This document shows, piece after piece, positions 3,096 to 56,370 of a stretch of 59,649 bases of DNA (the stretch's first letter is position 1; every line of letters begins with the position of its first letter). Origin of the DNA: a virus (lineage: Duplodnaviria; Caudoviricetes). The stretch is taken from the IMG/VR virus record IMGVR_UViG_3300034280_000211, positions 1 to 59,649 of that record. One strand, written 5' to 3'. A program made the position numbers and the translations under genes. The notes under the pieces are model-generated. The model made no database searches and had not been told where the DNA came from. It worked only from the letters and a program-made list of their open reading frames with translations.

Positions 3096-3512
3096 TCACT
3101 GTCCCTTTTTGCGGGCATTGCGAATGGCTTTTCTCACCAGGATCTTTCCCGCCATGCGAAGGAAGGGAAGATTCCTCTTCGTCGCCTCTTCTTGGAGCCA
3201 GTCGCAGATGGTCTCCAAGTTACTTTCACACCAGCCGGGTTCCTTTACCTCAATCTCATCCATGAACCTCGCCCGCTGATTACATTGGCAATCGGGACTG
3301 GAGGTAATCCCGATCATGGAGAGGAGAGCTTTGAGTTCTGTGCCTGGGCCAGACTGCGGGGCTTGGTTGCGATCACTTGGGTATGCCGCGTGCTGCGGAT
3401 CAACGGTCCACAACTCGCCATCCATGAGACGAACGCACGCCATCGCTTCCTCAACGGAATACCCGCGCTCGCGGCATCGCGCCTCAAAAAAACGCTTGTG
3501 ACATGTAATCAT
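3096..3512 (-). CDS. Cys-containing hypothetical protein
   Basis: GPGTELK..L...GI...C.C..RA..MD...WC motif; ATGA overlap with upstream gene. Confidence 0.75.
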   Translation of the reverse strand: MITCHKRFFEARCRERGYSVEEAMACVRLMDGELWTVDPQHAAYPSDRNQAPQSGPGTELKALLSMIGITSSPDCQCNQRARFMDEIEVKEPGWCESNLETICDWLQEEATKRNLPFLRMAGKILVRKAIRNARKKGQ

Positions 3513-3928
3513 GGAAGCGGATTGCAGGGAGTGCTGAATGTGAATTTTGACGGATCGCCTTGTATGCCGGATCCGTAGTCGGCTGCGTTCAGCGTGGCAT
3601 TGTCCGGGCAGCTACACCCGTTGTCTTCGCAAGCGAGGGTTCCAAGGCATGTCCGTCTAAGCCATGGCGTCACAAACCACGCGTCCGAAGGAGTGCCAGT
3701 GCCTTGCCCGCCGCAACTTGGATCGCCGTCAAAGGCGTTGTTGAGCCTGTAGTACTCGCAAAGGTATCGGCCACACTCTGGCGGGGGGCACGGATCTGTT
3801 CGGCACTGGCCATTGCAGCAGTACTCGTTCGCCTCGCAGCATTCGCCGTTCACTCCGCCACAGCAACATTTGCCCTGGTCGCCCTCAACGCAATCTCTTT
3901 GACCGCAGCAGCACTTACAGCAGGCCAT
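3509..3928 (-). CDS. Highly Cys-rich protein (MACCKCCCG...)
   Basis: 139-aa ORF, first gene of the leftward late arm. Confidence 0.75.
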   Translation of the reverse strand: MACCKCCCGQRDCVEGDQGKCCCGGVNGECCEANEYCCNGQCRTDPCPPPECGRYLCEYYRLNNAFDGDPSCGGQGTGTPSDAWFVTPWLRRTCLGTLACEDNGCSCPDNATLNAADYGSGIQGDPSKFTFSTPCNPLP

Positions 3929-4976: not shown

Positions 4977-5024
4977 TTGAACACTCCTCAGGTTTCCCCG
5001 TCCGTTGTGGGCGGGTTGTGCGAA

Positions 5025-5054
5025 AGTATAGTCGGCTGTCCAGCGGGGCGTCAA
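5025..5054 (-). promoter_or_regulatory. Sigma-70 promoter TTGACG-N18-TATACT
   Basis: Near-consensus boxes with an upstream A/T tract. Confidence 0.75.
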
Positions 5055-5087
5055 TAAAAAAATCGTAGCGGCCGAAATTATTTTTTG

Positions 5088-5298
5088 GGCGAGCGGCCTA
5101 TATCTAATGGCGAGCATGCCACACGCGAACGTGTGCGGCGTGCGGCCGGGAAAGTAACGTCCCGGCAACGCTGGTGCGGATTGAACTATCCGCCCAGGTG
5201 AGCCGTTACACTGAGCCGTGATATACGGTCAGCGTGCCCGCGAAAAATTTCAAAAGAATTTTTCCGGCGAGCGGCCTATATCAATACGGCGAGCATGC
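5088..5298 (+). promoter_or_regulatory. Duplicated element GGCGAGCGGCCTATATC-N4/5-GGCGAGCATGC (5088-5119 and 5266-5298)
   Basis: Two near-identical copies, each preceded by A/T tracts, upstream of the early arm. Confidence 0.7.
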
Positions 5299-5371
5299 GG
5301 GGCGACAACTCGCCCCATGCGGGAAGGAAACGTATTACTTCCTGCGCATGCGGGCAGCCAATGGAGGTACG

Positions 5372-5578
5372 ATGTACTGTGACATCAACTTCCCGACGAA
5401 GAAGGCTCTGAAAGCGGCTGTTGCCAGTGGGCAGGCTGTGACGATCTTCTCGCCGGGGCCGTTTCCCGTGGATTGTTCTACGGGCAAGCATTGCGTGGAG
5501 GGGCCGCACTATCCCAAGCCTCACTCCTGGTACGCCAGTGTGGTGGTGGCTGATGGGCGGATCGTGTCGGTGAAGTGA
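5372..5578 (+). CDS. Small conserved phage protein
   Basis: GGAGG SD; NF.TKKALK.AV...EGPHYP..H.WYA pattern. Confidence 0.75.
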   Translation: MYCDINFPTKKALKAAVASGQAVTIFSPGPFPVDCSTGKHCVEGPHYPKPHSWYASVVVADGRIVSVK

Positions 5579-5658
5579 CGGGATTCGATCCCGGGCAGTG
5601 GCAGCCCTTATGGGTTATTCCGTGCCGCTGTCCGGGTTCGGTTGCCGTTTTTCGGTGT

Positions 5659-5848
5659 CCGAATAGCCGCAGTCCAAGATGGCTGCGAAGTGATGGACCG
5701 CTGATCACGGAATATCACGCCGCTGGCGTAGTAAACTGCCACACATCAGGGCAGGGCCAAAGTCCCTAGTGTCAAACATCTGGATCAAGCGCCCAGGTGC
5801 CAGCGGAGAAACGCAGCGACTGCGGCTATTCGGCTGCCGTTCGGTAGC
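5659..5848 (+). ncRNA. Candidate structured ncRNA
   Basis: Perfect 16-bp closing stem plus several nested helices; G-U pairs favour the + strand. Confidence 0.55.
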
Positions 5849-5865
5849 CATTCATGGAGGTGCGT

Positions 5866-6678
5866 ATGGTCACAAGATCACGCACCGCCCGTCCGCTCGG
5901 TGTCATTCTGCACCGGGGCCGGTCTGACTTTGACGGCTCCCCGTATGTGGTGATCATGCCACTCGGGAAGTCTGGCAATATCAAGACCGGCGGTATGCTC
6001 CAGACCTATATCATTAGGTCGCATGTGCATCCCGTACAGGCGGTGCGTACAGGTGGCGACATCGCCATCTGCGGTGCGGGTGATACCGCCTGCCCGCTGC
6101 AAGGGGTTTTCGTCCGCAAACGCGGCAAGCGAAAGTTCCGTGCGTGTTATGTCAACGTAGGCCAGGGCCCTGCCATGGTCTACAGTGCGTTCCGGCGTGG
6201 TCGATACGTGGAGTATTCCGCCATTGACCATGACCAGTTCATTCGGGGTCGCAAGATTCGGTTCGGCACATACGGCGAGCCGGTGCTGATCCCCCTGGAG
6301 CTAATGAACCATCTGGCCAGTATTTCCGCTGGCTGGACGGGGTATACTCACCAGTGGTCAAAGGTTCAGTATGCGGGCTATCGGCAGTATCTCATGGCAT
6401 CTGTCCATGGTCTTACTGGCCCGTGGTCGCGTGAGCATGCCAAGCATCTAGGCTGGCGTACCTTCCGCACCATGCGTGGAGGTGTGCCTGCTGACAGTGA
6501 GATTCTCTGCCCGGCCTCCCTGGAGGCTGGCAAGCGGCTCACCTGTGAGCAGTGCCGTCTATGTGACGGTGCGGGTACTCGCAAGGCGGGCCTGTCGTTA
6601 GTGGACGTTTACATTCCCGGGCATGGTGGCAAGGCGATTATGTCTGCCATTGCACATCTGCCCATCCTTCAGGCGTGA
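5866..6678 (+). CDS. Gp88-like Cys-cluster phage protein
   Basis: N.KTG, C...CP, CY, IRFGTYGEP, TGYTHQW and CP...TC.QC.LC motifs. Confidence 0.7.
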   Translation: MVTRSRTARPLGVILHRGRSDFDGSPYVVIMPLGKSGNIKTGGMLQTYIIRSHVHPVQAVRTGGDIAICGAGDTACPLQGVFVRKRGKRKFRACYVNVGQGPAMVYSAFRRGRYVEYSAIDHDQFIRGRKIRFGTYGEPVLIPLELMNHLASISAGWTGYTHQWSKVQYAGYRQYLMASVHGLTGPWSREHAKHLGWRTFRTMRGGVPADSEILCPASLEAGKRLTCEQCRLCDGAGTRKAGLSLVDVYIPGHGGKAIMSAIAHLPILQA

Positions 6679-6686
6679 GGTGTGAC

Positions 6687-6815
6687 ATGGTCGATGCGTA
6701 CTACTCCAACGAACTCAAATGCTGGGTTCGTCTGGAGCGTGAGGCGGATGGCGAGTGGTGCCATACGTCTGGATTTTCTACCCGCGAGGCTGCGATTCGC
6801 GGCCGGGAGGTGTGA
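6687..6815 (+). CDS. Small early protein (42 aa)
   Basis: Starts in GAGGTGTGACATG; stop lies in the next copy of the motif. Confidence 0.6.
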   Translation: MVDAYYSNELKCWVRLEREADGEWCHTSGFSTREAAIRGREV

Positions 6816-6816
6816 C

Positions 6817-6984
6817 ATGTCTTCAGAGCCAACCTGTAGCGTGCAACTATCGGCATCCGACATCGACAGGCTGCTGGCGGCTATTGAATTTCAGTTGGCC
6901 AACGATCCCAGCCTCGCTCCCGAGTCCCGGGACAGCCTGGACTATCTCGGCCAGCACCTAGACCGTGCATATGTGGAGGAATGA
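6817..6984 (+). CDS. Small early protein
   Basis: Starts in GAGGTGTGACATG. Confidence 0.65.
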   Translation: MSSEPTCSVQLSASDIDRLLAAIEFQLANDPSLAPESRDSLDYLGQHLDRAYVEE

Positions 6985-7051
6985 CATGGACGTATGTCCC
7001 GACAAAATCCCCTGGGCCACTGGGCCAGATTACGTGAACGTGAGGTGTGAC

Positions 7052-7303
7052 ATGCGAAGGCTGGACGACGAGCCGCTGCAATGGCGGTACGGGATCACGC
7101 TGCGTGGCCTGTGGCTTGCCTCCAATGGGCAGTGGGTGCGAGATGGCTCACACCCCTCCGTGCAGTACTGGCCCACTATGGAGCAGGCGCGGGCGTGGCG
7201 TGAAAGACACATGCCCGGCGAGCTAGGTGCATGGGCCGAGGCCATCGGTATTTTCCAAGGCGGCGTCAATGTGACTGCCGCTGTTCATAACGAGGAGGTG
7301 TGA
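7052..7303 (+). CDS. Small early protein (alternative start 6986)
   Basis: Starts in GAGGTGTGACATG. Confidence 0.6.
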   Translation: MRRLDDEPLQWRYGITLRGLWLASNGQWVRDGSHPSVQYWPTMEQARAWRERHMPGELGAWAEAIGIFQGGVNVTAAVHNEEV

Positions 7304-7304
7304 C

Positions 7305-7583
7305 ATGGTGGCAATCACCAGCAAGTATCACGGGCCGACGAATACACGCGGCTCATGTGTTCGGGCTACGGCCAACGGCCGCATGGTCACTGTGCTGTGG
7401 GCCAGTGAGTTAGACAGCGAGGCCAACCACCGAGCGGCGTGCAAACTGCTCTGCGAAAAGCTGGGCTGGGATGCGGATCGCTTCTACGGCGGGTCCATGG
7501 ACGATGGGAGGTGGGCTTGGGTGCCGGTCTTCCCATACGAATGGGAGCAGCGACAGAAGGAGACAACCAATGCGACGAGTTGA
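7305..7583 (+). CDS. Conserved phage hypothetical protein
   Basis: I.SKY.GPTNTRGS motif; strong SD. Confidence 0.75.
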   Translation: MVAITSKYHGPTNTRGSCVRATANGRMVTVLWASELDSEANHRAACKLLCEKLGWDADRFYGGSMDDGRWAWVPVFPYEWEQRQKETTNATS

Positions 7584-7908
7584 GACATACAAGGGCTCCA
7601 AGGATTTCGTCCTGGCCCTGGAACCTGATGATCTGGACAGCCTGCTGCCCACCTTCGACCGCGTGCGGTTGGAGTGGGCCAAGGAATGGCAGCGACGAGG
7701 CAGCCGGGATGAGGGCTCCTGCTGTCTGGGCGTGGGCGTGTCTGTGTACTACCTGCGACCGGGCAAGCGTAAGCCTGAACGTAGGCAGGTTATCTCTTGG
7801 ACATGGTCACAGGGTGATCTGGAGGCAGACAGGACCCGCCACCTGCCGCTTGGCATGCTCGCGGAGCATGGCGTGCTAGGTGTGTACGACTGTGGGCGTA
7901 TGGACTAG
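7570..7908 (+). CDS. Hypothetical early protein
   Basis: AAGGAG SD before ATG 7570. Confidence 0.65.
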   Translation: MRRVETYKGSKDFVLALEPDDLDSLLPTFDRVRLEWAKEWQRRGSRDEGSCCLGVGVSVYYLRPGKRKPERRQVISWTWSQGDLEADRTRHLPLGMLAEHGVLGVYDCGRMD

Positions 7909-7919
7909 GAGGACGGGCG

Positions 7920-8090
7920 ATGCAATGCCCCGTCTGTGATTGTTGCGAGGTGTCGTTTGCCGGCGTTCTAGGTGACGTAGGTCATGCGAGATGCCGGGAC
8001 TGCGGGATTGTTTACACGTTTGACCCGTCATTGGAGGACGAGTGCTATGTGGGCAGTACGGACACGGAAGAAGATTGTGGCGACGTTTGA
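7920..8090 (+). CDS. Small Zn-ribbon protein
   Basis: CPVC...CRDC; GGAGG SD. Confidence 0.55.
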   Translation: MQCPVCDCCEVSFAGVLGDVGHARCRDCGIVYTFDPSLEDECYVGSTDTEEDCGDV

Positions 8091-8175
8091 TGAGCGATGG
8101 GAGGCGGAAGAGTGGATGCGGACTTGGCGTTCCATCCATGGACATAAGTGTTTCCTAGTGAGAACGGAGAATTGA
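8047..8175 (+). CDS. Small early protein
   Basis: GGAGG SD; 42 aa. Confidence 0.5.
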   Translation: MWAVRTRKKIVATFDERWEAEEWMRTWRSIHGHKCFLVRTEN

Positions 8176-8176
8176 G

Positions 8177-8347
8177 ATGGCTGCTCGCAAGTGGGCCAAG
8201 TGCTGCGAGTGCGGCGGCGAAGTGTGGTTCGATGCGTGGGCCGACCTGGAGGGAGACATTGCCGGCGGCCCGTTTGACAACAACCGATGTTCAGAATGCG
8301 ACGAGGAGGATGTTGACTATGACGAAGTCGAAGACGACGACGAGTGA
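8177..8347 (+). CDS. Small acidic Zn-ribbon protein
   Basis: CCEC...CSEC and an acidic tail. Confidence 0.55.
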   Translation: MAARKWAKCCECGGEVWFDAWADLEGDIAGGPFDNNRCSECDEEDVDYDEVEDDDE

Positions 8348-8549
8348 GCGTGTGATCGTCCATGTTTCTGGCGGCATCGCGTCTTGCGTGTCCGATCCCG
8401 GCGTGGATTGTCTGGTGCTGGACTGGGATGCAATGTGTGACGGCAATGCACCGCCGACGATGGAGGATGTCCGCGAGTGGCGTGACCAGTATCGCGGCCT
8501 GTTGGACGGCCAAGAGGTGGATCGATTGGAAATCCTTGCAGGAGAATGA
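8319..8549 (+). CDS. Small early protein
   Basis: VIVHVSGG...D.D pattern; start uncertain. Confidence 0.55.
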   Translation: MTKSKTTTSERVIVHVSGGIASCVSDPGVDCLVLDWDAMCDGNAPPTMEDVREWRDQYRGLLDGQEVDRLEILAGE

Positions 8550-8550
8550 C

Positions 8551-8736
8551 ATGACCGCACATGACTGCATCGCCTGCGAGCGGCTGCTGCTGCGGGCGAA
8601 AGAGTTGATTGATGAGGCTCTGTGGCAGCACATCTATGACGAGAGCAACGGCGAGCGACCGGATAAGAACTGCGAGTACTCGCAGTGGCTGAATGACTGT
8701 GATCGATTCCTATTAGGCGAGGAGGCTACGACATGA
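8551..8736 (+). CDS. Small early protein
   Basis: TGACATG coupling. Confidence 0.6.
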   Translation: MTAHDCIACERLLLRAKELIDEALWQHIYDESNGERPDKNCEYSQWLNDCDRFLLGEEATT

Positions 8737-8945
8737 GCTTTCGACCGATGGTGAAGGTGGGCAATGAGTGGGCTGGCAACGGCATTCGGTTTGCCACCCG
8801 TGAGGAGGCCGAGGCTTCGGCCCGTGATCTGTACGGACGGTGGACGCTGTGTGTGGATCACCGGGCAGATGAGTCCGATGACCCGGTAAACTGTGAGTGG
8901 GATTCGTCCCGTGGCAATGTGCATTTGGAGGTGGTTAATGCGTGA
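8733..8945 (+). CDS. Conserved phage hypothetical protein
   Basis: WAGN..RFATREEAE...W motif; ATGA overlap. Confidence 0.7.
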   Translation: MSFRPMVKVGNEWAGNGIRFATREEAEASARDLYGRWTLCVDHRADESDDPVNCEWDSSRGNVHLEVVNA

Positions 8946-9177
8946 CATGACCAACGATGACCGTGCCGATTTGGCGCGCACTGCCTGCGAGGATTTCTCT
9001 GAGTCCACAGGGCAGTCGATGGAAAACGAGTTGGGCAACATCCTCACAGACCTCATGGCTGACCTTCTGCACTTGGCAAACCGGGACGGATTGTGTGCCG
9101 ACAGTTTAGTGCGGCGGGCAACCATGCATTACGAGGCCGAGATAACCGAAGAGGAGGAATGCGATGCCATCGATTGA
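8938..9177 (+). CDS. Conserved phage hypothetical protein
   Basis: N..RA...DL.ADL.H pattern; GGAGG SD. Confidence 0.7.
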   Translation: MRDMTNDDRADLARTACEDFSESTGQSMENELGNILTDLMADLLHLANRDGLCADSLVRRATMHYEAEITEEEECDAID

Positions 9178-9382
9178 ACTGGCTGCGGCTGATTGGTCTG
9201 CGATATGGGATGCGCTGGACTACGCATCCGAGGATGTTGGCTATGACCTATACGACACCCGGCACGGCGATTTCTACGATGCCGAGGAACGGAAAGCCCG
9301 AGAAGACAAGCAGGCCAACTGGGACCGGCTTGCCAAGTTGATTGCACCGCTCGCGAAGGAGACTACCAATGCCAACGATTGA
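9164..9382 (+). CDS. Small early protein
   Basis: SD present, overlapping start. Confidence 0.6.
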   Translation: MPSIELAAADWSAIWDALDYASEDVGYDLYDTRHGDFYDAEERKAREDKQANWDRLAKLIAPLAKETTNAND

Positions 9383-9554
9383 ACTGACCGACGAGCAGGC
9401 CGAGGAGTTGCGGGATGTGCTGCAACGGGAGATCGATGGCGTCAGCGAATCCATCAGCGACGATCTGCTGCGCCTCATCGAACCCGACTACATCGAACGC
9501 ACGCACCGCAAGTCCGTCCTGTCCGACATCCTTCACCTACTGGAGATTGCGTGA
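9369..9554 (+). CDS. Small early protein
   Basis: AAGGAG SD. Confidence 0.6.
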   Translation: MPTIELTDEQAEELRDVLQREIDGVSESISDDLLRLIEPDYIERTHRKSVLSDILHLLEIA

Positions 9555-9805
9555 TGACTGACCTAACCGTGATCGACAAGGGCAACCACTGCGAGATTCA
9601 CCAGGGAGATGCGATTGCCGCTGACTATGTGGCGAGCGTGCGTCTGGCCAAACTGTTTGCCGCTGCCCCGGAGTTGCTGTACCAACTGAAGCAAGCCGTC
9701 GCCCTAATCGTTGAGAAAGACTTGTTCGATTGGGAGGATGCCACTAGCGGCAACAGTTTCCAGGACATGGAAGACGCAATCCGAAGAGCGGAAGGTAGGG
9801 AGTAA
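9551..9805 (+). CDS. Phage protein with AAAPELL motif
   Basis: A.L.AAAPELL..L motif typical of early phage genes. Confidence 0.65.
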   Translation: MMTDLTVIDKGNHCEIHQGDAIAADYVASVRLAKLFAAAPELLYQLKQAVALIVEKDLFDWEDATSGNSFQDMEDAIRRAEGRE

Positions 9806-9820
9806 CCATGGAGGGAACGA

Positions 9821-9958
9821 ATGGCAAGGAGCGATCATTGGACTGACGATCACGTAGACAAGGCCATCCGCCTGCTTGTGCTGGCGGAGGCCGCTGTGAA
9901 GGACACCGAGCCTGACCTGTACCAACAGATCAGGCTTTTTCTTTTGGAGGAAGCATGA
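9821..9958 (+). CDS. Small early protein (45 aa)
   Basis: GGAGG SD; ATGA overlap with the next gene. Confidence 0.55.
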   Translation: MARSDHWTDDHVDKAIRLLVLAEAAVKDTEPDLYQQIRLFLLEEA

Positions 9959-10164
9959 TCCAAGAGTTCGACGGGACCACCGAGCAGTTCGCCCGCCTTG
10001 TGCGGGAGATGTTCCCCAACTGCCGTATCTGCGAGGACGATGAGGGGCAGCTTGTCATCTACACCGGGGCCGCTATTCAAATGGGCGGTGAGGTTGTATC
10101 ATGGTTGCCTGATGATGAGGATGTGTACCAATCTTGGTGCGATAGAAACCCGGAGGTGATGTGA
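9955..10164 (+). CDS. Small early protein
   Basis: GGAGG SD, coupled. Confidence 0.6.
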   Translation: MIQEFDGTTEQFARLVREMFPNCRICEDDEGQLVIYTGAAIQMGGEVVSWLPDDEDVYQSWCDRNPEVM

Positions 10165-10400
10165 TGGCTAAGAAACGCGCAAGGAAAATCACCGCAGAGG
10201 CGTTCATTGACGCCGTCATGCGGCATCGGGACGGGATGATTCAGGACATTGCCGATGAGCTGGGTGTCACCCAGCAGGCAGTGAGCAAACGACTGCGTGA
10301 GTACAAGGAACGCGGAGTCACGGGGCTCCCCGTATTCAACGGCCGGGTGGTGGATGTGGATGACGTTCAGAAGATGGTCAATAAATACAGGGGGAAGTGA
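10161..10400 (+). CDS. HTH DNA-binding protein
   Basis: IQDIADELGVTQQAVSKRL helix-turn-helix. Confidence 0.8.
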   Translation: MMAKKRARKITAEAFIDAVMRHRDGMIQDIADELGVTQQAVSKRLREYKERGVTGLPVFNGRVVDVDDVQKMVNKYRGK

Positions 10401-10762
10401 TGACAGATATCGAAGTGATCCAGTGGTTCTTTGACTTGGAGAAGGTGTCGCAGGGTTTCAACTGGCCGGTCAATGCGGCGGGCCTTGCTCATACCAAGCG
10501 GTGCCTGGATTCCCTGGTTGCTGGTAAGGCTCACGCTGCCGATGTGCTTGCAGCATACAAGGAGTTCGCCGGCACTATCGGGCCTTCAGGCATGAACCTT
10601 CTCTTGCAATCCGATGATGCCTTTCCCGAGGTCAATCATTCCGGCAAGCCCACTCCGCCCGCTCCTGGTGCGGTGGTGTTGTACGTTGCGCCGGACGGTA
10701 AGTGTGTGGTGGCCACGCCGACCAACGTGTGGGGGGCGGCACCGGAGTTGTCTGTTCGATAA
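10397..10762 (+). CDS. Hypothetical protein
   Basis: Coupled 121-aa ORF. Confidence 0.6.
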   Translation: MMTDIEVIQWFFDLEKVSQGFNWPVNAAGLAHTKRCLDSLVAGKAHAADVLAAYKEFAGTIGPSGMNLLLQSDDAFPEVNHSGKPTPPAPGAVVLYVAPDGKCVVATPTNVWGAAPELSVR

Positions 10763-10771
10763 GGAGTCTAC

Positions 10772-10882
10772 ATGTACAAGGATGTACTGATTCTCATGCA
10801 TGTCATGGCGACATGCATCCTCTTGCTGCTTGCGGTGCAGCTAAAGGAGATCCTGATCCGTATACTATTGGAGGTCCGATGA
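10772..10882 (+). CDS. Small membrane peptide (36 aa)
   Basis: AAGGAG SD; hydrophobic. Confidence 0.45.
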   Translation: MYKDVLILMHVMATCILLLLAVQLKEILIRILLEVR

Positions 10883-10949
10883 GCGAGATGGCTGACTTCT
10901 GCGTTGGTTCCCTGGTTGTCCTTGCCTTCCTCTGGTGGAGTTCCCTTGC

Positions 10950-11708
10950 ATGAAACTGTATCTCTATGGCCGTGTCTCAACGGATGATCAGCAGACATCG
11001 GCTGATGCTCAGTCGGTCAGGCTGCGTGAGTTCGCTGAGAAGTCCGGCCTGGAGATTGGCGGTGTGTTCGTGGACGAGGATGTCTCTGGCAAGATCCCCC
11101 TCCAAGAGCGACCCAAGGGGAAGGAGTTGTGGAATCTCATCCAACCTGGGGATGCCATCGCATTCACCAAGGTGGATAGATGTTTCCGATCCTTGGTAGA
11201 TGCCGCCTCCACCCTGGAGAAGTGGAAGACTCTCGGCATCCGGGTCCATATCCTGGACTTGGGGATCGATGTGAACACGCCGGCTGGAGAGTTGTTCTTC
11301 TCCCAACTGGCAGCCTTCGCTCAGTTTGAGCGGGCCATGATCGGCCTGCGCGTGCGTGAGGCCCAGGCCCACAAGCGGCGCACCGGCAAGCCCTACAACA
11401 AAACCCGCCCTATCGGCTGGCGCAGGCAGGGTGACTGCTATGTGCCCCTGCATTCCGAGCGGAGGCTAGCCGAGCGTGTCATCGCTTACCGCGACCGTGG
11501 CGAGTCGCTGCCCCGGATTGCTTTGCGTCTGTGCAAGGAGAACATCCGGAGCGCTGACGGCTCTTGGCTTCGCCCTTCCCATGTCCGGCGGCTGGAGATC
11601 GCGGCGCGAGCCGGATATCCAAGGATTGCGAGACGGTCCTTGCAAGCCTCTGCGCAGACATGCTCGCCACACGGATCGGGATCTGATGTTCCTCCGACAG
11701 AGACCTGA
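10950..11708 (+). CDS. Serine recombinase (resolvase/invertase family)
   Basis: YGRVSTDDQ catalytic motif, D.DVSG, RP, KVDR.FRS, A.FER and a C-terminal HTH. Confidence 0.92.
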   Translation: MKLYLYGRVSTDDQQTSADAQSVRLREFAEKSGLEIGGVFVDEDVSGKIPLQERPKGKELWNLIQPGDAIAFTKVDRCFRSLVDAASTLEKWKTLGIRVHILDLGIDVNTPAGELFFSQLAAFAQFERAMIGLRVREAQAHKRRTGKPYNKTRPIGWRRQGDCYVPLHSERRLAERVIAYRDRGESLPRIALRLCKENIRSADGSWLRPSHVRRLEIAARAGYPRIARRSLQASAQTCSPHGSGSDVPPTET

Positions 11709-12123
11709 GCGTCATGCCGTGCATGAAGCGGTTGAACGCCATCTCCTGGTCGTCCTCTGGCAACTCTTCAATCGCCAGCCGCAGGTGATCTAGCTCGTCG
11801 TATTCCGGCATGCGGTCAGCAGCGTCAGCCAGTGAGATGCGGTTCTCTCTCGGCGTGCGGGTCGCCTTCTTAATGAATTTCAACATGCCATTGAGGATGG
11901 CCCGAGCGAAGTAGGCTTTCGGATACGGGAGTCTCTTGGGATCGTACGTCCGTGCAGCCTTCGATAGGGCGAGGAACCCCTCCCCTTCCAGGTCGTCAAC
12001 GTACAGCGACCGCTGCCATTGCGGGCGGTTCTGTACGAAGTACCTCGCCAACATGTGGACGAGGTCCAGGTAATCAGTGACCAGGCGCTGCTTTGTCTTT
12101 GAGAGTTTTGATCTCTTGCTCAT
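11479..12123 (-). CDS. Sigma-70 family RNA polymerase sigma factor
   Basis: Region 2 (LV..LA, DDL..EG.LAL.KAA..YDP, Y..RAI) and region 4 (L..AI..LP, G.TL...S) motifs. Confidence 0.85.
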   Translation of the reverse strand: MSKRSKLSKTKQRLVTDYLDLVHMLARYFVQNRPQWQRSLYVDDLEGEGFLALSKAARTYDPKRLPYPKAYFARAILNGMLKFIKKATRTPRENRISLADAADRMPEYDELDHLRLAIEELPEDDQEMAFNRFMHGMTLRSLSEEHQIPIRVASMSAQRLARTVSQSLDIRLAPRSPAAGHGKGEAKSRQRSGCSPCTDAKQSGAATRHGRGKR

Positions 12124-12304
12124 GCATTTCCAGCCGAGCCTCATGGTCGGCCAGTGTTTCTTTCAGTTCTTCAAACATCTCAGGCATGCGTTGCACCGTG
12201 TCGGCAATCACCGCCACCTTGGCGTGGATTGAAAACGCCCACGGAATCACGGCCGCACAGGCCGAAATCACAAGCATCCAGAATTCTGCGTCAACGCTCA
12301 TCAT
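12074..12304 (-). CDS. Single-TM coiled-coil protein, holin-like
   Basis: N-terminal TM then a coiled coil. Confidence 0.6.
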   Translation of the reverse strand: MMSVDAEFWMLVISACAAVIPWAFSIHAKVAVIADTVQRMPEMFEELKETLADHEARLEMHEQEIKTLKDKAAPGH

Positions 12305-35365: not shown

Positions 35366-36832
35366 TTATGGGGCGTAGAAGGTTTTTCGGATGGGGTTTT
35401 GATCGGCCAAAGAGGTCACTACGGCCCGCTGGTCCACGGTGGCAAGTTTCCCGGTAATTTCCGCTGTTACGTCGGAGTACTTGGCCTCTTCCACGATCAC
35501 GTATGCGGATTCCCCGGTCAGGGTGAAATTCTGGTTAGTGGGCGTGGCGTAGGTGGGCGAGGTGTCGATGTCATACTTTCCGCCAGTAAACCCGCCGGTC
35601 ACGGATGCCTTGGTCGATGTGTGCGTCAACGAAAGCCCCGATAGCGACAGGCTCGTCGGAGTGGTCGTAATCGACAATCCTGCAAGGCTGATCGGCGTGG
35701 ATGCCGTAGTAAGCGATAGGCCGGACGCAGAGGCGGTTACGGCGCTTGGTGCTTTGCCTACGAACGTCGCACTGAAGCCTGAATAGTTGACAATCGTTGC
35801 GTACGTCGGAGTAATCTTCACAGTGCAGGTGGTTGAATCGAAGGACGCCGAGACGCCGGTTACGACTTGCACGGATGTGGAAGTGGGCGTGATCGCCACC
35901 GTCCCGGATGGGGTGGGAAGCGAAACAGAAATGCTCCCAGAAATCCCGGTGGCCTTGTCGTACGACGCGCTGCCGCCGGACACCCCTGTCGCCTTGTCGT
36001 ATGTCGCCGTGCCGCCCGAAACTGCGGTCGCCTTGTCATATGTCGCGGCGATTGCTGTTGGCGCCGGGATCTCAACCGTACCCGTAAGCGACGAGATGAC
36101 CTGACCCAAGACCGGCACGGATACGGAGCCGCCCTTAATGGCGTTGGTCAGTGCCGTAGTTGAACCAGCGCCTTGCGGGACGCTGATCTTTACGCTGCCG
36201 CCTTGGATGGCGTCCGTGGGAATCGGCAGGGTGCCAATCACGGCGCGATACTGCGGCACTGTGATCGTGTCTGTGCGGAGGCGTATCGGCCCGCCACCGC
36301 CGCCGCCACCGCCAACTCCATCACGGCCATCTCGTCCGTCGCGCCCGGCGGTGCCAGTGGCCCCGGGCTCGCCTGGAGCGCCAGCAAACCCAACGCCGGC
36401 ACTGCCTGCCGCGCCCGTCGCCCCGGCGGCACCAGTGGCACCATCGCGGCCATCGCGCCCACCGCCGGGATTGTTAACCGTATCGCCGCCATAGAACTGG
36501 TTGATATTGAACTGCTGGCGGTTACTAAAGTCGTACTGATTGCCTTGGTAGTTGTTGTAGCTGTTGCCGCCGTAAGTGCTGGTGTAGATGCGAGTCTCGC
36601 CAGGAACGGGAAATAGCTCCCGGTAGTCTCCGGGATTCCATGGCGCCCTGCCACCGCTTCCATAGACGCCACGTTCGTTGCCGAGCGCGTAGTTGGGCTG
36701 AAAGTTTACGTCGCCGCGATGCGTCAGCGGCTGATTGCAGTTGCCAAGCGCTTGGGTCAGTTGTTTTAGGGCATTGGGCGGCAGAACGCCTTGCAGAGCT
36801 TTTACGATTGCGGGCGTTGCTTGTGTAAGCAT
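35366..36832 (-). CDS. Collagen-repeat tail/fibre protein
   Basis: GXY triplets; three ATYDKAT-like repeats; Thr-rich. Confidence 0.7.
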   Translation of the reverse strand: MLTQATPAIVKALQGVLPPNALKQLTQALGNCNQPLTHRGDVNFQPNYALGNERGVYGSGGRAPWNPGDYRELFPVPGETRIYTSTYGGNSYNNYQGNQYDFSNRQQFNINQFYGGDTVNNPGGGRDGRDGATGAAGATGAAGSAGVGFAGAPGEPGATGTAGRDGRDGRDGVGGGGGGGGPIRLRTDTITVPQYRAVIGTLPIPTDAIQGGSVKISVPQGAGSTTALTNAIKGGSVSVPVLGQVISSLTGTVEIPAPTAIAATYDKATAVSGGTATYDKATGVSGGSASYDKATGISGSISVSLPTPSGTVAITPTSTSVQVVTGVSASFDSTTCTVKITPTYATIVNYSGFSATFVGKAPSAVTASASGLSLTTASTPISLAGLSITTTPTSLSLSGLSLTHTSTKASVTGGFTGGKYDIDTSPTYATPTNQNFTLTGESAYVIVEEAKYSDVTAEITGKLATVDQRAVVTSLADQNPIRKTFYAP

Positions 36833-55564: not shown

Positions 55565-55713
55565 TATTCGTCACCCTTCTTCGTTGGGATGCTGTCCATG
55601 CCCATGCCGGTTCCCTGGAGCATGCGCAGTTTGATGATGTCCACGGACTCTGGCTTCCGCGTCTCGGCAATGAGTTGCCGGAGGTAGTCCAGGTTCTGGA
55701 TTGCTGGTTCCAT
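55564..55713 (-). CDS. Small protein, 49 aa (MEPAIQNLDYLRQLI...)
   Basis: Read manually; TAATG coupling to the next gene. Confidence 0.55.
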   Translation of the reverse strand: MEPAIQNLDYLRQLIAETRKPESVDIIKLRMLQGTGMGMDSIPTKKGDE

Positions 55714-55751
55714 AAAGAAAACGCCGCTGGCCAGTTGCCCAGCCAGCGGCG
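55714..55751 (-). terminator. Terminator after the capsid genes
   Basis: 10-bp stem CGCCGCTGGC/GCCAGCGGCG followed by TTTTCTTT. Confidence 0.75.
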
Positions 55752-55779
55752 CCCCCGATTGCCCTGTGACGGGCAGTTC

Positions 55780-56370
55780 TTAGTAGCGGGTCTTCACGAT
55801 GGCCAGGACGTTCGCCCCGGTGGTCGCACCCGTGCTGCACGCACGGCCGAGAACACCAAGACCGTTGTCGCCGGCACCAGTCGTCGCAGCACCCACTCCG
55901 CTCTTCGTCACGCGACCAGCCGTGGTGCCCGTCGAAGCCGCAGCGGTGATCGCCGCGAGACGGTCGCCCACAACCAGATCCGAGCCGCTGAGAGCAACAG
56001 CCACCTCAGTCGGACCTTCCACCGTGACCCAGAACACATCGTTCACCGCAACGCCCGTCGCCGGGAGATGCTCATCCACCACGCCAACGCGCTCTTCGTT
56101 GGTCGCCGTGGTGTAGCCCTTCGTCACCGTGAAGCCAGCCAGACCAGCCGTGGCCGTGTCGAACGACACAACCCGCTTGGGGGCCAGGGCGATGGACGAC
56201 GAGTTCCGCACGGCAACGCAGGTCTTCACCCGGTTGCTGCGGACGCGGCCCGTGCTGGGATCAACGTCAGGGAAGTTCTTCACCACCCCAACCCAATTTG
56301 CACCGTCCGTGGCGTTGGTGACCCCAAGGGTCTGGCCAAGCGAGAACGGCGGATCAACAAAAAGACTCAT
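55780..56370 (-). CDS. Capsid decoration/cement protein
   Basis: Thr/Gly/Val-rich; FW..V.GP; directly after MCP. Confidence 0.65.
   Translation of the reverse strand: MSLFVDPPFSLGQTLGVTNATDGANWVGVVKNFPDVDPSTGRVRSNRVKTCVAVRNSSSIALAPKRVVSFDTATAGLAGFTVTKGYTTATNEERVGVVDEHLPATGVAVNDVFWVTVEGPTEVAVALSGSDLVVGDRLAAITAAASTGTTAGRVTKSGVGAATTGAGDNGLGVLGRACSTGATTGANVLAIVKTRY

Follow-up and report, generated by a model that had tools for sequence, protein, structure and literature searches.

Introduction

Host takeover is timed in phage early leaders, where few structured RNAs are known beyond model phages. RNase III processing hairpins are among the closest described systems and include the early intercistronic sites of phage T7 and the large hairpin in the lambda N leader; an RNase III substrate needs a helix of roughly 20 bp, or about two turns. 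Here, we describe a structured element, module C (5653..5839, + strand), in the early region of a lytic-type freshwater phage, of which the complete 59,649-nt record (IMG/VR record IMGVR_UViG_3300034280_000211), hereafter the window, was analysed. Like the RNase III hairpins, module C is a long double-stranded hairpin with a tolerant apex that sits in an untranslated early spacer just 5' of a Shine-Dalgarno sequence (SD), and small hairpins would remain at the new RNA ends if it were cut. Unlike them, it is ~190 nt long and branched, is present in some relatives and absent from others, has a swapped interior and is one of two tandem paralogues, and its cleavage is a proposal.

Several other classes of hairpin share part of these properties. 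REPIN/REP, ERIC and Correia-type repeats and miniature inverted-repeat transposable elements (MITEs) are intergenic, transcribed hairpins of ~100-200 nt with conserved inverted ends. Module C resembles them in forming a hairpin, in its inverted ends and in its presence/absence polymorphism, but they are dispersed and multicopy, while module C occupies a single locus and its bacterial matches are only two phage-sized contigs. Integron attC sites are imperfect palindromes in arrays, with structure conserved over sequence. They likewise have conserved ends and a variable centre, yet here there is no integron integrase and there are no cassette open reading frames (ORFs), and the strand bias comes from G.U pairs, which fits RNA and not a recombined DNA strand. 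The phi29 pRNA (~170 nt) resembles module C in its place at the head of the early region, in its paired ends and in that relatives share structure more than sequence. It is, however, essential and belongs to protein-primed phi29-like phages, whereas the phage studied here possesses a terminase as well as terminal repeats and the element is missing from about half of its relatives. In T4-type phages, early stem-loop repeats named PeSLs mark the borders of insertions, deletions and replacements between close relatives (PMC4122927). A PeSL combines terminator and promoter motifs, flanks ORFs and is found in many copies in each genome, whereas here no promoter-like site is found, one locus is concerned and the cargo is non-coding hairpin sequence. 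Finally, phage hammerheads have been proposed to cut long transcripts into gene-length mRNAs, with a similar position in haloviruses (PMC3088659). The likeness is that relatives of this phage carry one in the same operon, in a spacer before an early gene; module C itself, however, has neither a hammerhead core nor a match to an Rfam ribozyme. The clade is a natural experiment in which the same spacer is empty, variously filled or extended, with a hammerhead one spacer upstream in some members. A non-exhaustive literature search found no paper describing the element.

Results and Discussion

Module C is closed by a long stem

Module C is a real, clade-specific and previously unnamed element with an unusual modular evolution, and it is absent from Rfam. 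Its features, in part taken from the minimum free energy (MFE) fold, are the following:

5653..5839, + strand: module C, stem-closed element with outer pairs CGGUG/UGCCG, the conserved base CCGAAUAGCC/GGCUAUUCGG and then an allele-specific extension
5659..5674, + strand: 5' arm of the closing stem (perfect 16 bp), inverted repeat CCGAATAGCCGCAGTC
5818..5833, + strand: 3' arm of the closing stem (perfect 16 bp), inverted repeat GACTGCGGCTATTCGG
5682..5817, + strand: second closing helix, GCUGCG (5682-5687) with CGCAGC (5812-5817), in the MFE fold; encloses the variable interior
5690..5718, + strand: inner hairpin, P2-like, with a GAUCA motif inside, in the MFE fold; G.U becomes A-U at 5695:5713 in a natural variant
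5727..5732, + strand: CGUAGU motif, common to several allele types (15 of 30 alleles)

Both arms of the perfect 16-nt repeat lie exactly where an earlier sequence-only note on this DNA had placed them (5659-5674 / 5818-5833), and this inverted repeat is the longest perfect one in the genome among 14 pairs of at least 13 nt within 400 nt. The full closing helix consists of five outer pairs, one mismatch and these 16 perfect pairs. Folding of 5655-5852 yields -89.3 kcal/mol on the + strand (z -5.21), a stability that none of 200 shuffles attained; the - strand reaches -84.0 kcal/mol (z -3.74), and the larger region 5440-5870 gives z -5.29. In the long fold, the arms of an ancestral plain hairpin enclose the whole element. 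The 137 nt left after removal of 19 nt at either end of the core fold at chance level (z -0.2). The statistical signal is thus that of the long closing stem and not of the inner helices, and the multi-helix interior, on which the earlier note had laid stress, turns out to be the least supported part, also in view of apical pairs that are broken in a natural variant. Among the nested helices it listed, GCTGCG/CGCAGC (5682/5812), GTGAT/ATCAC and CCGCTGGC/GCCAGCGG (5720/5799) do occur in the MFE fold, while CTGCC/GGCAG, AGGG/CCCT, CATCTGG/CCAGGTG and an ACAC/GTGT pseudoknot are not confirmed to exceed chance. The hairpin it saw before the next SD (GGCTGCC/GGTAGCC) is present in the MFE fold, and the SD of the second early gene is unpaired or weakly paired in the folds, i.e., not sequestered. 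Neither promoter-like nor terminator-like sites were found on the + strand in 5170-5929, and ARAGORN returned no tRNA or tmRNA genes in the whole window.

A search of 5000-6500 against Rfam 15 (E up to 10) returned a single family, mir-578, which lies over the upstream module A described below and scores 19.3 bits where the gathering score is 98. The whole window (E up to 0.5) gave no match at all, and in the loci of ten relatives nothing was found over the element. The view that this is an unannotated structured element on the + strand, outside Rfam, is supported. A 64-aa ORF (5575-5769) overlapping it had been suspected to be spurious, and indeed it is: it matches no family, and 98%-identical relatives have another sequence in its place.

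Filled and empty sites occur at a single locus

Relatives were collected through the gene downstream of module C. We kept 80 of 490 viral-contig relatives of this gene and read the loci of the 24 closest (67-98% identity); contigs and loci of relatives carry L-numbers, and filled and empty sites were assigned by direct reading. The match of the 24 loci to the window is limited to the flanks 5580-5668 and 5824-5860. Thirteen are filled, with the ends GGTGTCCGAATAGCC...GCTATTCGGCTGCCG around a different interior, and the other 11 are empty, with a plain hairpin (TTCGGYTGCCG-loop-GGTAGYC) before the SD. The interior differs even in two phages whose proteins are 98% identical. When the upstream hairpin served as the anchor for a second sample, 30 matches were obtained, seven of them in unrelated contexts; the 23 clade loci comprise 10 filled and 13 empty sites. 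Between modules A and C, one or two extra hairpin-like modules are seen in L006 (2650-2990)/L334 and L339, and the spacer therefore behaves as an array of variable length. In L340, a variant has a shorter conserved base with two G.U pairs.

End scans, one metagenome scan and one bacterial-genome scan raised the total to 30 distinct alleles of 81-216 nt, whose interiors fall by eye into about eight to ten groups and whose inverted repeats are spaced by about 45 to 200 nt. All true matches in the viral, metagenome and bacterial collections sit at this single locus. In viral contigs, the 15-mer of the 5' end matched 55 times, 21 times with both ends present (the other 34 are chance or unrelated genes), and the 15-mer of the 3' end matched 58 times, 19 with both ends and one of them new. 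The metagenome scan returned at least 119 stretches; among the matches listed, five are true and four of these are new. Bacterial genomes gave 37 matches, with ~26 expected by chance according to our own arithmetic, and only L360 and L374 are true. Both belong to this clade and are contigs of phage size (55 and 53 kb) in metagenome-assembled genomes labelled Pirellulaceae and Rubrivivax, placements that are probably binning artefacts; as the labels conflict and belong to two different phyla, no host is derived from them. A 20-mer from the interior of the window had no match in the viral contigs, and a 21-mer from the commonest interior had eight, every one on an already known contig. No match to 5400-6100 was found by blastn in a phage GenBank collection, nor was a comparable upstream motif seen by eye in the distant relatives L026-L050 (~40% identity in the downstream gene). 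Within this genome, the end motif occurs eight times at 0-1 mismatch, a number reached by three of 100 shuffles.

Pairing is conserved while the interior is exchanged

Every one of the 28 alleles that were tested folds better than its shuffles by a wide margin (z -3.8 to -7.5). Of the 592 cells that the 20-pair closing stem has in an alignment of 30 alleles, 95.6% are paired, compared to 28-58% in a control in which the partner was slid. Two-sided changes occur at seven of the 20 pairs (14 cells), and none of 500 shuffles reaches any of the measures. At one pair, the path of change can be followed from C-G through U.G (L164) to U-A (L021). After trimming, the interiors have a mean z of -1.5 across alleles. 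In the commonest type (type 1), one pair of the inner hairpin runs U.G, U-A, G-C, and between types the stem of this hairpin differs while its flanks stay. This support consists of one type 1 alignment and a reading of the folds, with MAFFT placing the 5' strands of different types out of register. The inner hairpin 5690-5718 is the sole interior helix with comparative support in the window allele. The apex is barely constrained, and on the reading proposed below it would be largely free to vary as long as it folds. The expectation of conserved pairing in homologues is supported for the closing stem and one inner hairpin and fails for the apical helices. The order GATCA...TAGT, which is common to type 2 alleles and the window, occurs in five of the 30 alleles where 0.1 would be expected. 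Since motifs cross the allele types, the alleles are divergent relatives with a common 5' core and not unrelated inserts.

Module C has a tandem paralogue

Directly upstream of module C lies a second stem-closed hairpin, module A. The neighbouring arms of the two modules can also pair locally:

5578..5649, + strand: module A, hairpin with a variable tip; closing stem with 5' arm GACGGGATTCGA.. and 3' arm TTCGGTTGCCGTT; in all close relatives
5637..5663, + strand: unit hairpin B, formed by the 3' arm of module A and the 5' arm of module C; can form instead of the long-range closing stems
5829..5849, + strand: unit hairpin D, formed by the 3' arm of module C and CGGUAGCC; 6 nt before the SD
5637..5649, + strand: left 13-nt direct repeat TTCGGTTGCCGTT, spaced by 192 from the right copy
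5829..5841, + strand: right 13-nt direct repeat TTCGGCTGCCGTT, partner of the left copy

Module A folds at -48.1 kcal/mol (z -5.45), and about 30 distinct alleles share this fold. Across 31 alleles, 97.5% of the 558 cells in its closing stem are paired; seven pairs vary one-sidedly, always via G.U (34 cells by our own sum), and two pairs change on both sides. The 3' arms of modules A and C are identical at 12 of 13 positions and the 5' arms at nine of 12. The two modules are paralogues, with arms of the form ACGGnnUYCGA... / ...UUCGGYUGCCGU, and both combine a conserved stem base with a fast-changing top. Hairpins B and D each join the 3' arm of one module to the 5' arm of the next, and this palindromic unit occurs twice in the genome, both times at this locus, against 0.01 expected, and hairpin D is the plain hairpin of the empty-site relatives.

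The element has a + strand bias. This preference is weak for the core of module C alone (-80.5 kcal/mol on the + strand versus -79.9 on the - strand) and clear for hairpin B (-14.0 versus -8.2 kcal/mol), hairpin D (-13.0 versus -8.3 kcal/mol) and the 200-nt windows at 5451 and 5501 (-102.9 on the + strand versus -69.7 and -72.9 on the - strand). The + strand is the more stable one in 22 of 28 alleles. The closing stem of module C contains one invariant G.U pair, and one U.G becomes U-A in five alleles. The earlier statement that G-U wobbles favour the + strand hence applies to hairpins B and D and to the wobble changes among relatives, and only weakly to the core of the window by itself.

Variants are segregating in lake populations

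Contigs from four other lake runs were aligned to 5300-6100. Their summed depth is 130-340 on the flanks versus 0-22 over the interior. One variant of the window allele has four substitutions, of which three are unpaired in the fold and one turns a G.U pair into A-U in the inner hairpin 5690-5718. A second has seven changes within 15 nt (5758-5772), five of which break predicted apical pairs, while the rest of the contig matches; the apical helices of the earlier note are therefore not conserved. This cluster looks like a small templated or recombinational patch instead of independent point changes. A contig from run X3 joins 5642 to 5835 and thereby omits 192 nt, which is exactly the spacing of the direct repeats, and among the loose contig ends there are more empty-site forms as well as other alleles, so that lake populations are currently polymorphic at this site. 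Inverted ends are present, and the two flanking 13-nt copies differ at the same base in nearly all alleles.

A possible role in processing or stability of the early transcript

Our preferred, tentative reading is that module C works in cis as a structured RNA of the early polycistronic message and has a part in RNase III-type processing or in mRNA stability, an interpretation that we regard as possible and far from secured. The early operon would be transcribed through modules A and C, which lie in the spacer between the first and second early genes, and the closing helix of module C would then become the target of an endoribonuclease specific for double strands, for instance host RNase III. 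The helix might instead stay uncut and simply block exonucleases and Rho loading. As an outcome, the two cistrons would be separated or insulated. The leftover half-arms could refold into hairpins B and D, with B capping the 3' end of the upstream message and D capping the 5' end of the downstream message just before the SD. The structure, its conserved pairing, the strand bias, the single locus, the polymorphism and the paralogy of the two modules are established here, while the transcript, its cutting and any influence on mRNA stability or translation are inferred. The helix has the length of an RNase III substrate, with 5 + 16 pairs in the window and 20 aligned pairs across the 30 alleles. 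In L004, the first early gene is preceded by a type II hammerhead (RF02276; 39.0 bits, gathering score 37) whose end is 12 nt from the start codon. This ribozyme lies at L004:2380-2440 (equal to L093:117-177), and a further hit, in another relative, is at L103:98-157 (33.8 bits), in each case on the strand of the early genes. RNA processing of the early leader is therefore plausible in this clade. If modules of this kind serve in processing or stability, they show how an operon can acquire, exchange and lose a non-coding module and stay undisturbed. The family could join Rfam once its expression is shown.

Several observations weigh against this interpretation. Module C is absent from 11 of the 24 close relatives and from 13 of the 23 clade loci, and it is therefore dispensable. 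The two-sided changes come from few lineages (GCAGUC/GACUGC in the window, CGCCAUG/CAUGGCG in L096/L123, L021 and a few others), and the tool that counted the pairs warns that relatedness of sequences alone can beat shuffles without any structure. Moreover, nine of the 20 closing-stem pairs are invariant, which is stricter than a passive stem base CCGAAUAGCC/GGCUAUUCGG needs. The same holds for CGTAGT, which a passive stem does not require and which occurs in 15 of 30 alleles including the window, against a shuffle mean of 0.3 and a maximum of 2.

Alternative explanations

It is conceivable, though rather unlikely, that module C is in essence a palindromic module at the DNA level, i.e., a selfish or neutral insertion in the loop of a conserved hairpin, with 13-nt direct repeats and palindromic units that serve as recombination points for the gain, exchange and loss of modules, as for the PeSL cassettes of T4-type phages, and an RNA fold that is a by-product. 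The presence/absence polymorphism is bounded exactly by the 13-nt direct repeats, down to the omission of exactly 192 nt between them in the contig from another lake sample, and extra modules are found at the same place in L006/L334 and L339. The interior differs between 98%-identical phages and folds at chance level in the window, the neighbouring first gene has been swapped as well (joint 5375>5576), and the region also folds well as single-stranded DNA (z -4.01). Repeat-mediated modular shuffling has been described for PeSLs (PMC4122927). What speaks for an RNA instead is that one-sided changes are kept as G.U wobbles that pair on the + strand only, which neither a DNA duplex nor template-switch correction would give. 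The unit is not multicopy either, with its two occurrences in the genome both here and every true match in the collections at one locus, and unlike PeSLs it has no promoter-like site. In addition, the difference between the left and right repeats (T versus C) in nearly all filled alleles points to one origin and not to repeated insertions.

The stem might also free its variable interior of 60-200 nt as a trans-acting small RNA, for example a decoy or regulator in host takeover or counter-defence, with alleles under diversifying selection. A conserved base below a hypervariable top in two tandem modules, the many interior groups (about eight to ten by eye), the 5' core of inner hairpin and CGUAGU common across allele types, the coexistence of other alleles in the same lakes and the position in the earliest transcript would all suit such a cargo. 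We nonetheless consider it unlikely: the interiors are little constrained structurally, a stretch of 15 nt in the apex is rewritten in a near-identical variant, module C is missing from about half of the relatives, and no target or partner was identified. If the interiors were released RNAs, phages would have a hitherto unseen means of carrying small RNAs that can be exchanged. More speculative still, and accordingly given a little less credence, is the idea of the spacer as a cassette array whose stems release hypervariable early RNAs (for instance decoys against host defence or regulators of host takeover), or of the 5' core (stem base, inner hairpin and CGUAGU) as a new class of self-cleaving or protein-recruiting RNA, which would have a role at this spacer like that of the hammerhead at the neighbouring spacer in relatives.

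Translational operators such as those of T4 gp32 and RegA, or the lambda N leader, suggest yet another option, in which a phage protein, e.g., the DUF7227 or GP88 product of the gene downstream, binds the stem base and regulates its own translation. The base is conserved beyond the need for pairing (nine of 20 pairs invariant), a U-C mismatch is kept, and the element always lies just 5' of the SD of one of two alternative genes. We hold an operator to be improbable. Module A is closed by the same arms although no SD adjoins it, the gene persists in the empty-site relatives in which module C is missing, and the downstream protein has no recognisable nucleic-acid-binding fold or family.

The earlier note had left room for a ribozyme or a riboswitch-like leader. 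A structured leader 5' of a gene, a hammerhead that testifies to self-cleavage at the neighbouring spacer of the operon in relatives, and a few unpaired motifs common to alleles are what such an identity would lead one to expect. It is nevertheless very improbable, for either a riboswitch or a new self-cleaving ribozyme. The window contains no Rfam match to a known ribozyme or any other family (E up to 10 locally, 0.5 genome-wide), the conserved positions are mostly paired and the invariant ones lie in the stem base and not in junctions, the interior is replaced or missing in close relatives, and neither a terminator nor a platform that sequesters the SD is present. An invertible DNA switch run by the phage serine recombinase (10935-11708), to which the perfect inverted repeats around a short segment and the resolvase/invertase-type gene in the same arm might point, can practically be dismissed, as none of 28 interiors is the reverse complement of another (no opposite-strand cross-matches), contigs from four other samples contain no strand-changing joint and the distance between the repeats is not constant among alleles (about 45 to 200 nt).

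Further identities were rejected. A multicopy MITE/REP-like repeat or host REP is ruled out by the occurrence of the unit at one locus only, in this genome as in the collections. A retron msr-msd or an IS110 bridge RNA would have a reverse transcriptase or IS110 recombinase gene beside it, and no Pfam, PHROG or NCBIfam family of that kind was found in the genes on either side. The hammerhead RF02276 has no match in the window and is found only elsewhere, in relatives. A PeSL cassette does not fit a unit that lacks a promoter-like site on the + strand in 5170-5929 and is not repeated elsewhere.

The early arm and its genes

The record is complete, with direct terminal repeats of 127 bp and a completeness estimate of 100%, and the DNA runs containing this stretch come from freshwater and lake metagenomes, with no RNA run listed for 5200-6700. 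Terminase, portal, head and tail genes all lie on the - strand, and the genome also encodes a sigma-70-like factor, a helicase, an ERF recombinase and a serine recombinase. Small + strand genes form a block at ~5370-11700, the early arm of the earlier note. The two genes that border the spacer are:

5372..5578, + strand: first early gene, 68 aa (MYCDINF...), stop-free translation; homologues of the small ORF with the same start in L022 and L024
5856..6678, + strand: SD GGAGGUG (5856-5862) and second early gene, phrog_2554 / DUF7227

The first early gene was listed as an ORF from 5234, and its actual start is probably at 5372, behind an SD; no protein family matched the 68-aa product. The gene (5375-5576) is a swappable cassette, with 164 other letters replacing 200 nt in a contig of run X2, and relatives have unrelated genes in this slot with the same stop codon abutting module A. 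Directly 5' of its SD lies a conserved box (..AACGTATTACT..GCGCATGCGGGCAGC.., window 5327-5360) that is common to L004, L007 and L016 and coincides with a depth peak in other lake samples; it is possibly an early promoter or leader.

For the second early gene, the true start is likely the ATG at 5866 and not that at 5854, since relatives have no ATG at 5854 and the alignment begins with MV(T/A)RSR. DUF7227 was detected in 16 of its 37 homologues, a set that gave no other family, and the product (ORF 5854-6678) has seven invariant cysteines. In three relatives (e.g., L153:651-1214), a gene of the GP88 family (Pfam) replaces the DUF7227 gene behind the same element. The structure model of the downstream protein is confident (pLDDT 85.6). 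A sequence search of the PDB gave a best E of 0.32, Foldseek with the model returned nothing at E 0.001 or better, and the top VIA-align hits, radical-SAM barrels with Z 3.9, fall under the stated noise level of the tool.

At the end of the early arm, a sigma-70 region-2 protein (11479-12144, - strand) and a small serine recombinase (10935-11708, + strand) overlap convergently. Outside the arm, an ORF of 139 aa that is very rich in Cys (MACCKCCCGQRDC...; 3509-3928, - strand) matched no family. The most stable 200-nt folds of the genome are at 36200-36500 (-113.7 kcal/mol) and 55700-56000 (-103.5 kcal/mol), both on the - strand, where they fall inside GC-rich (0.66-0.76) structural genes; their high stability is probably an effect of composition.

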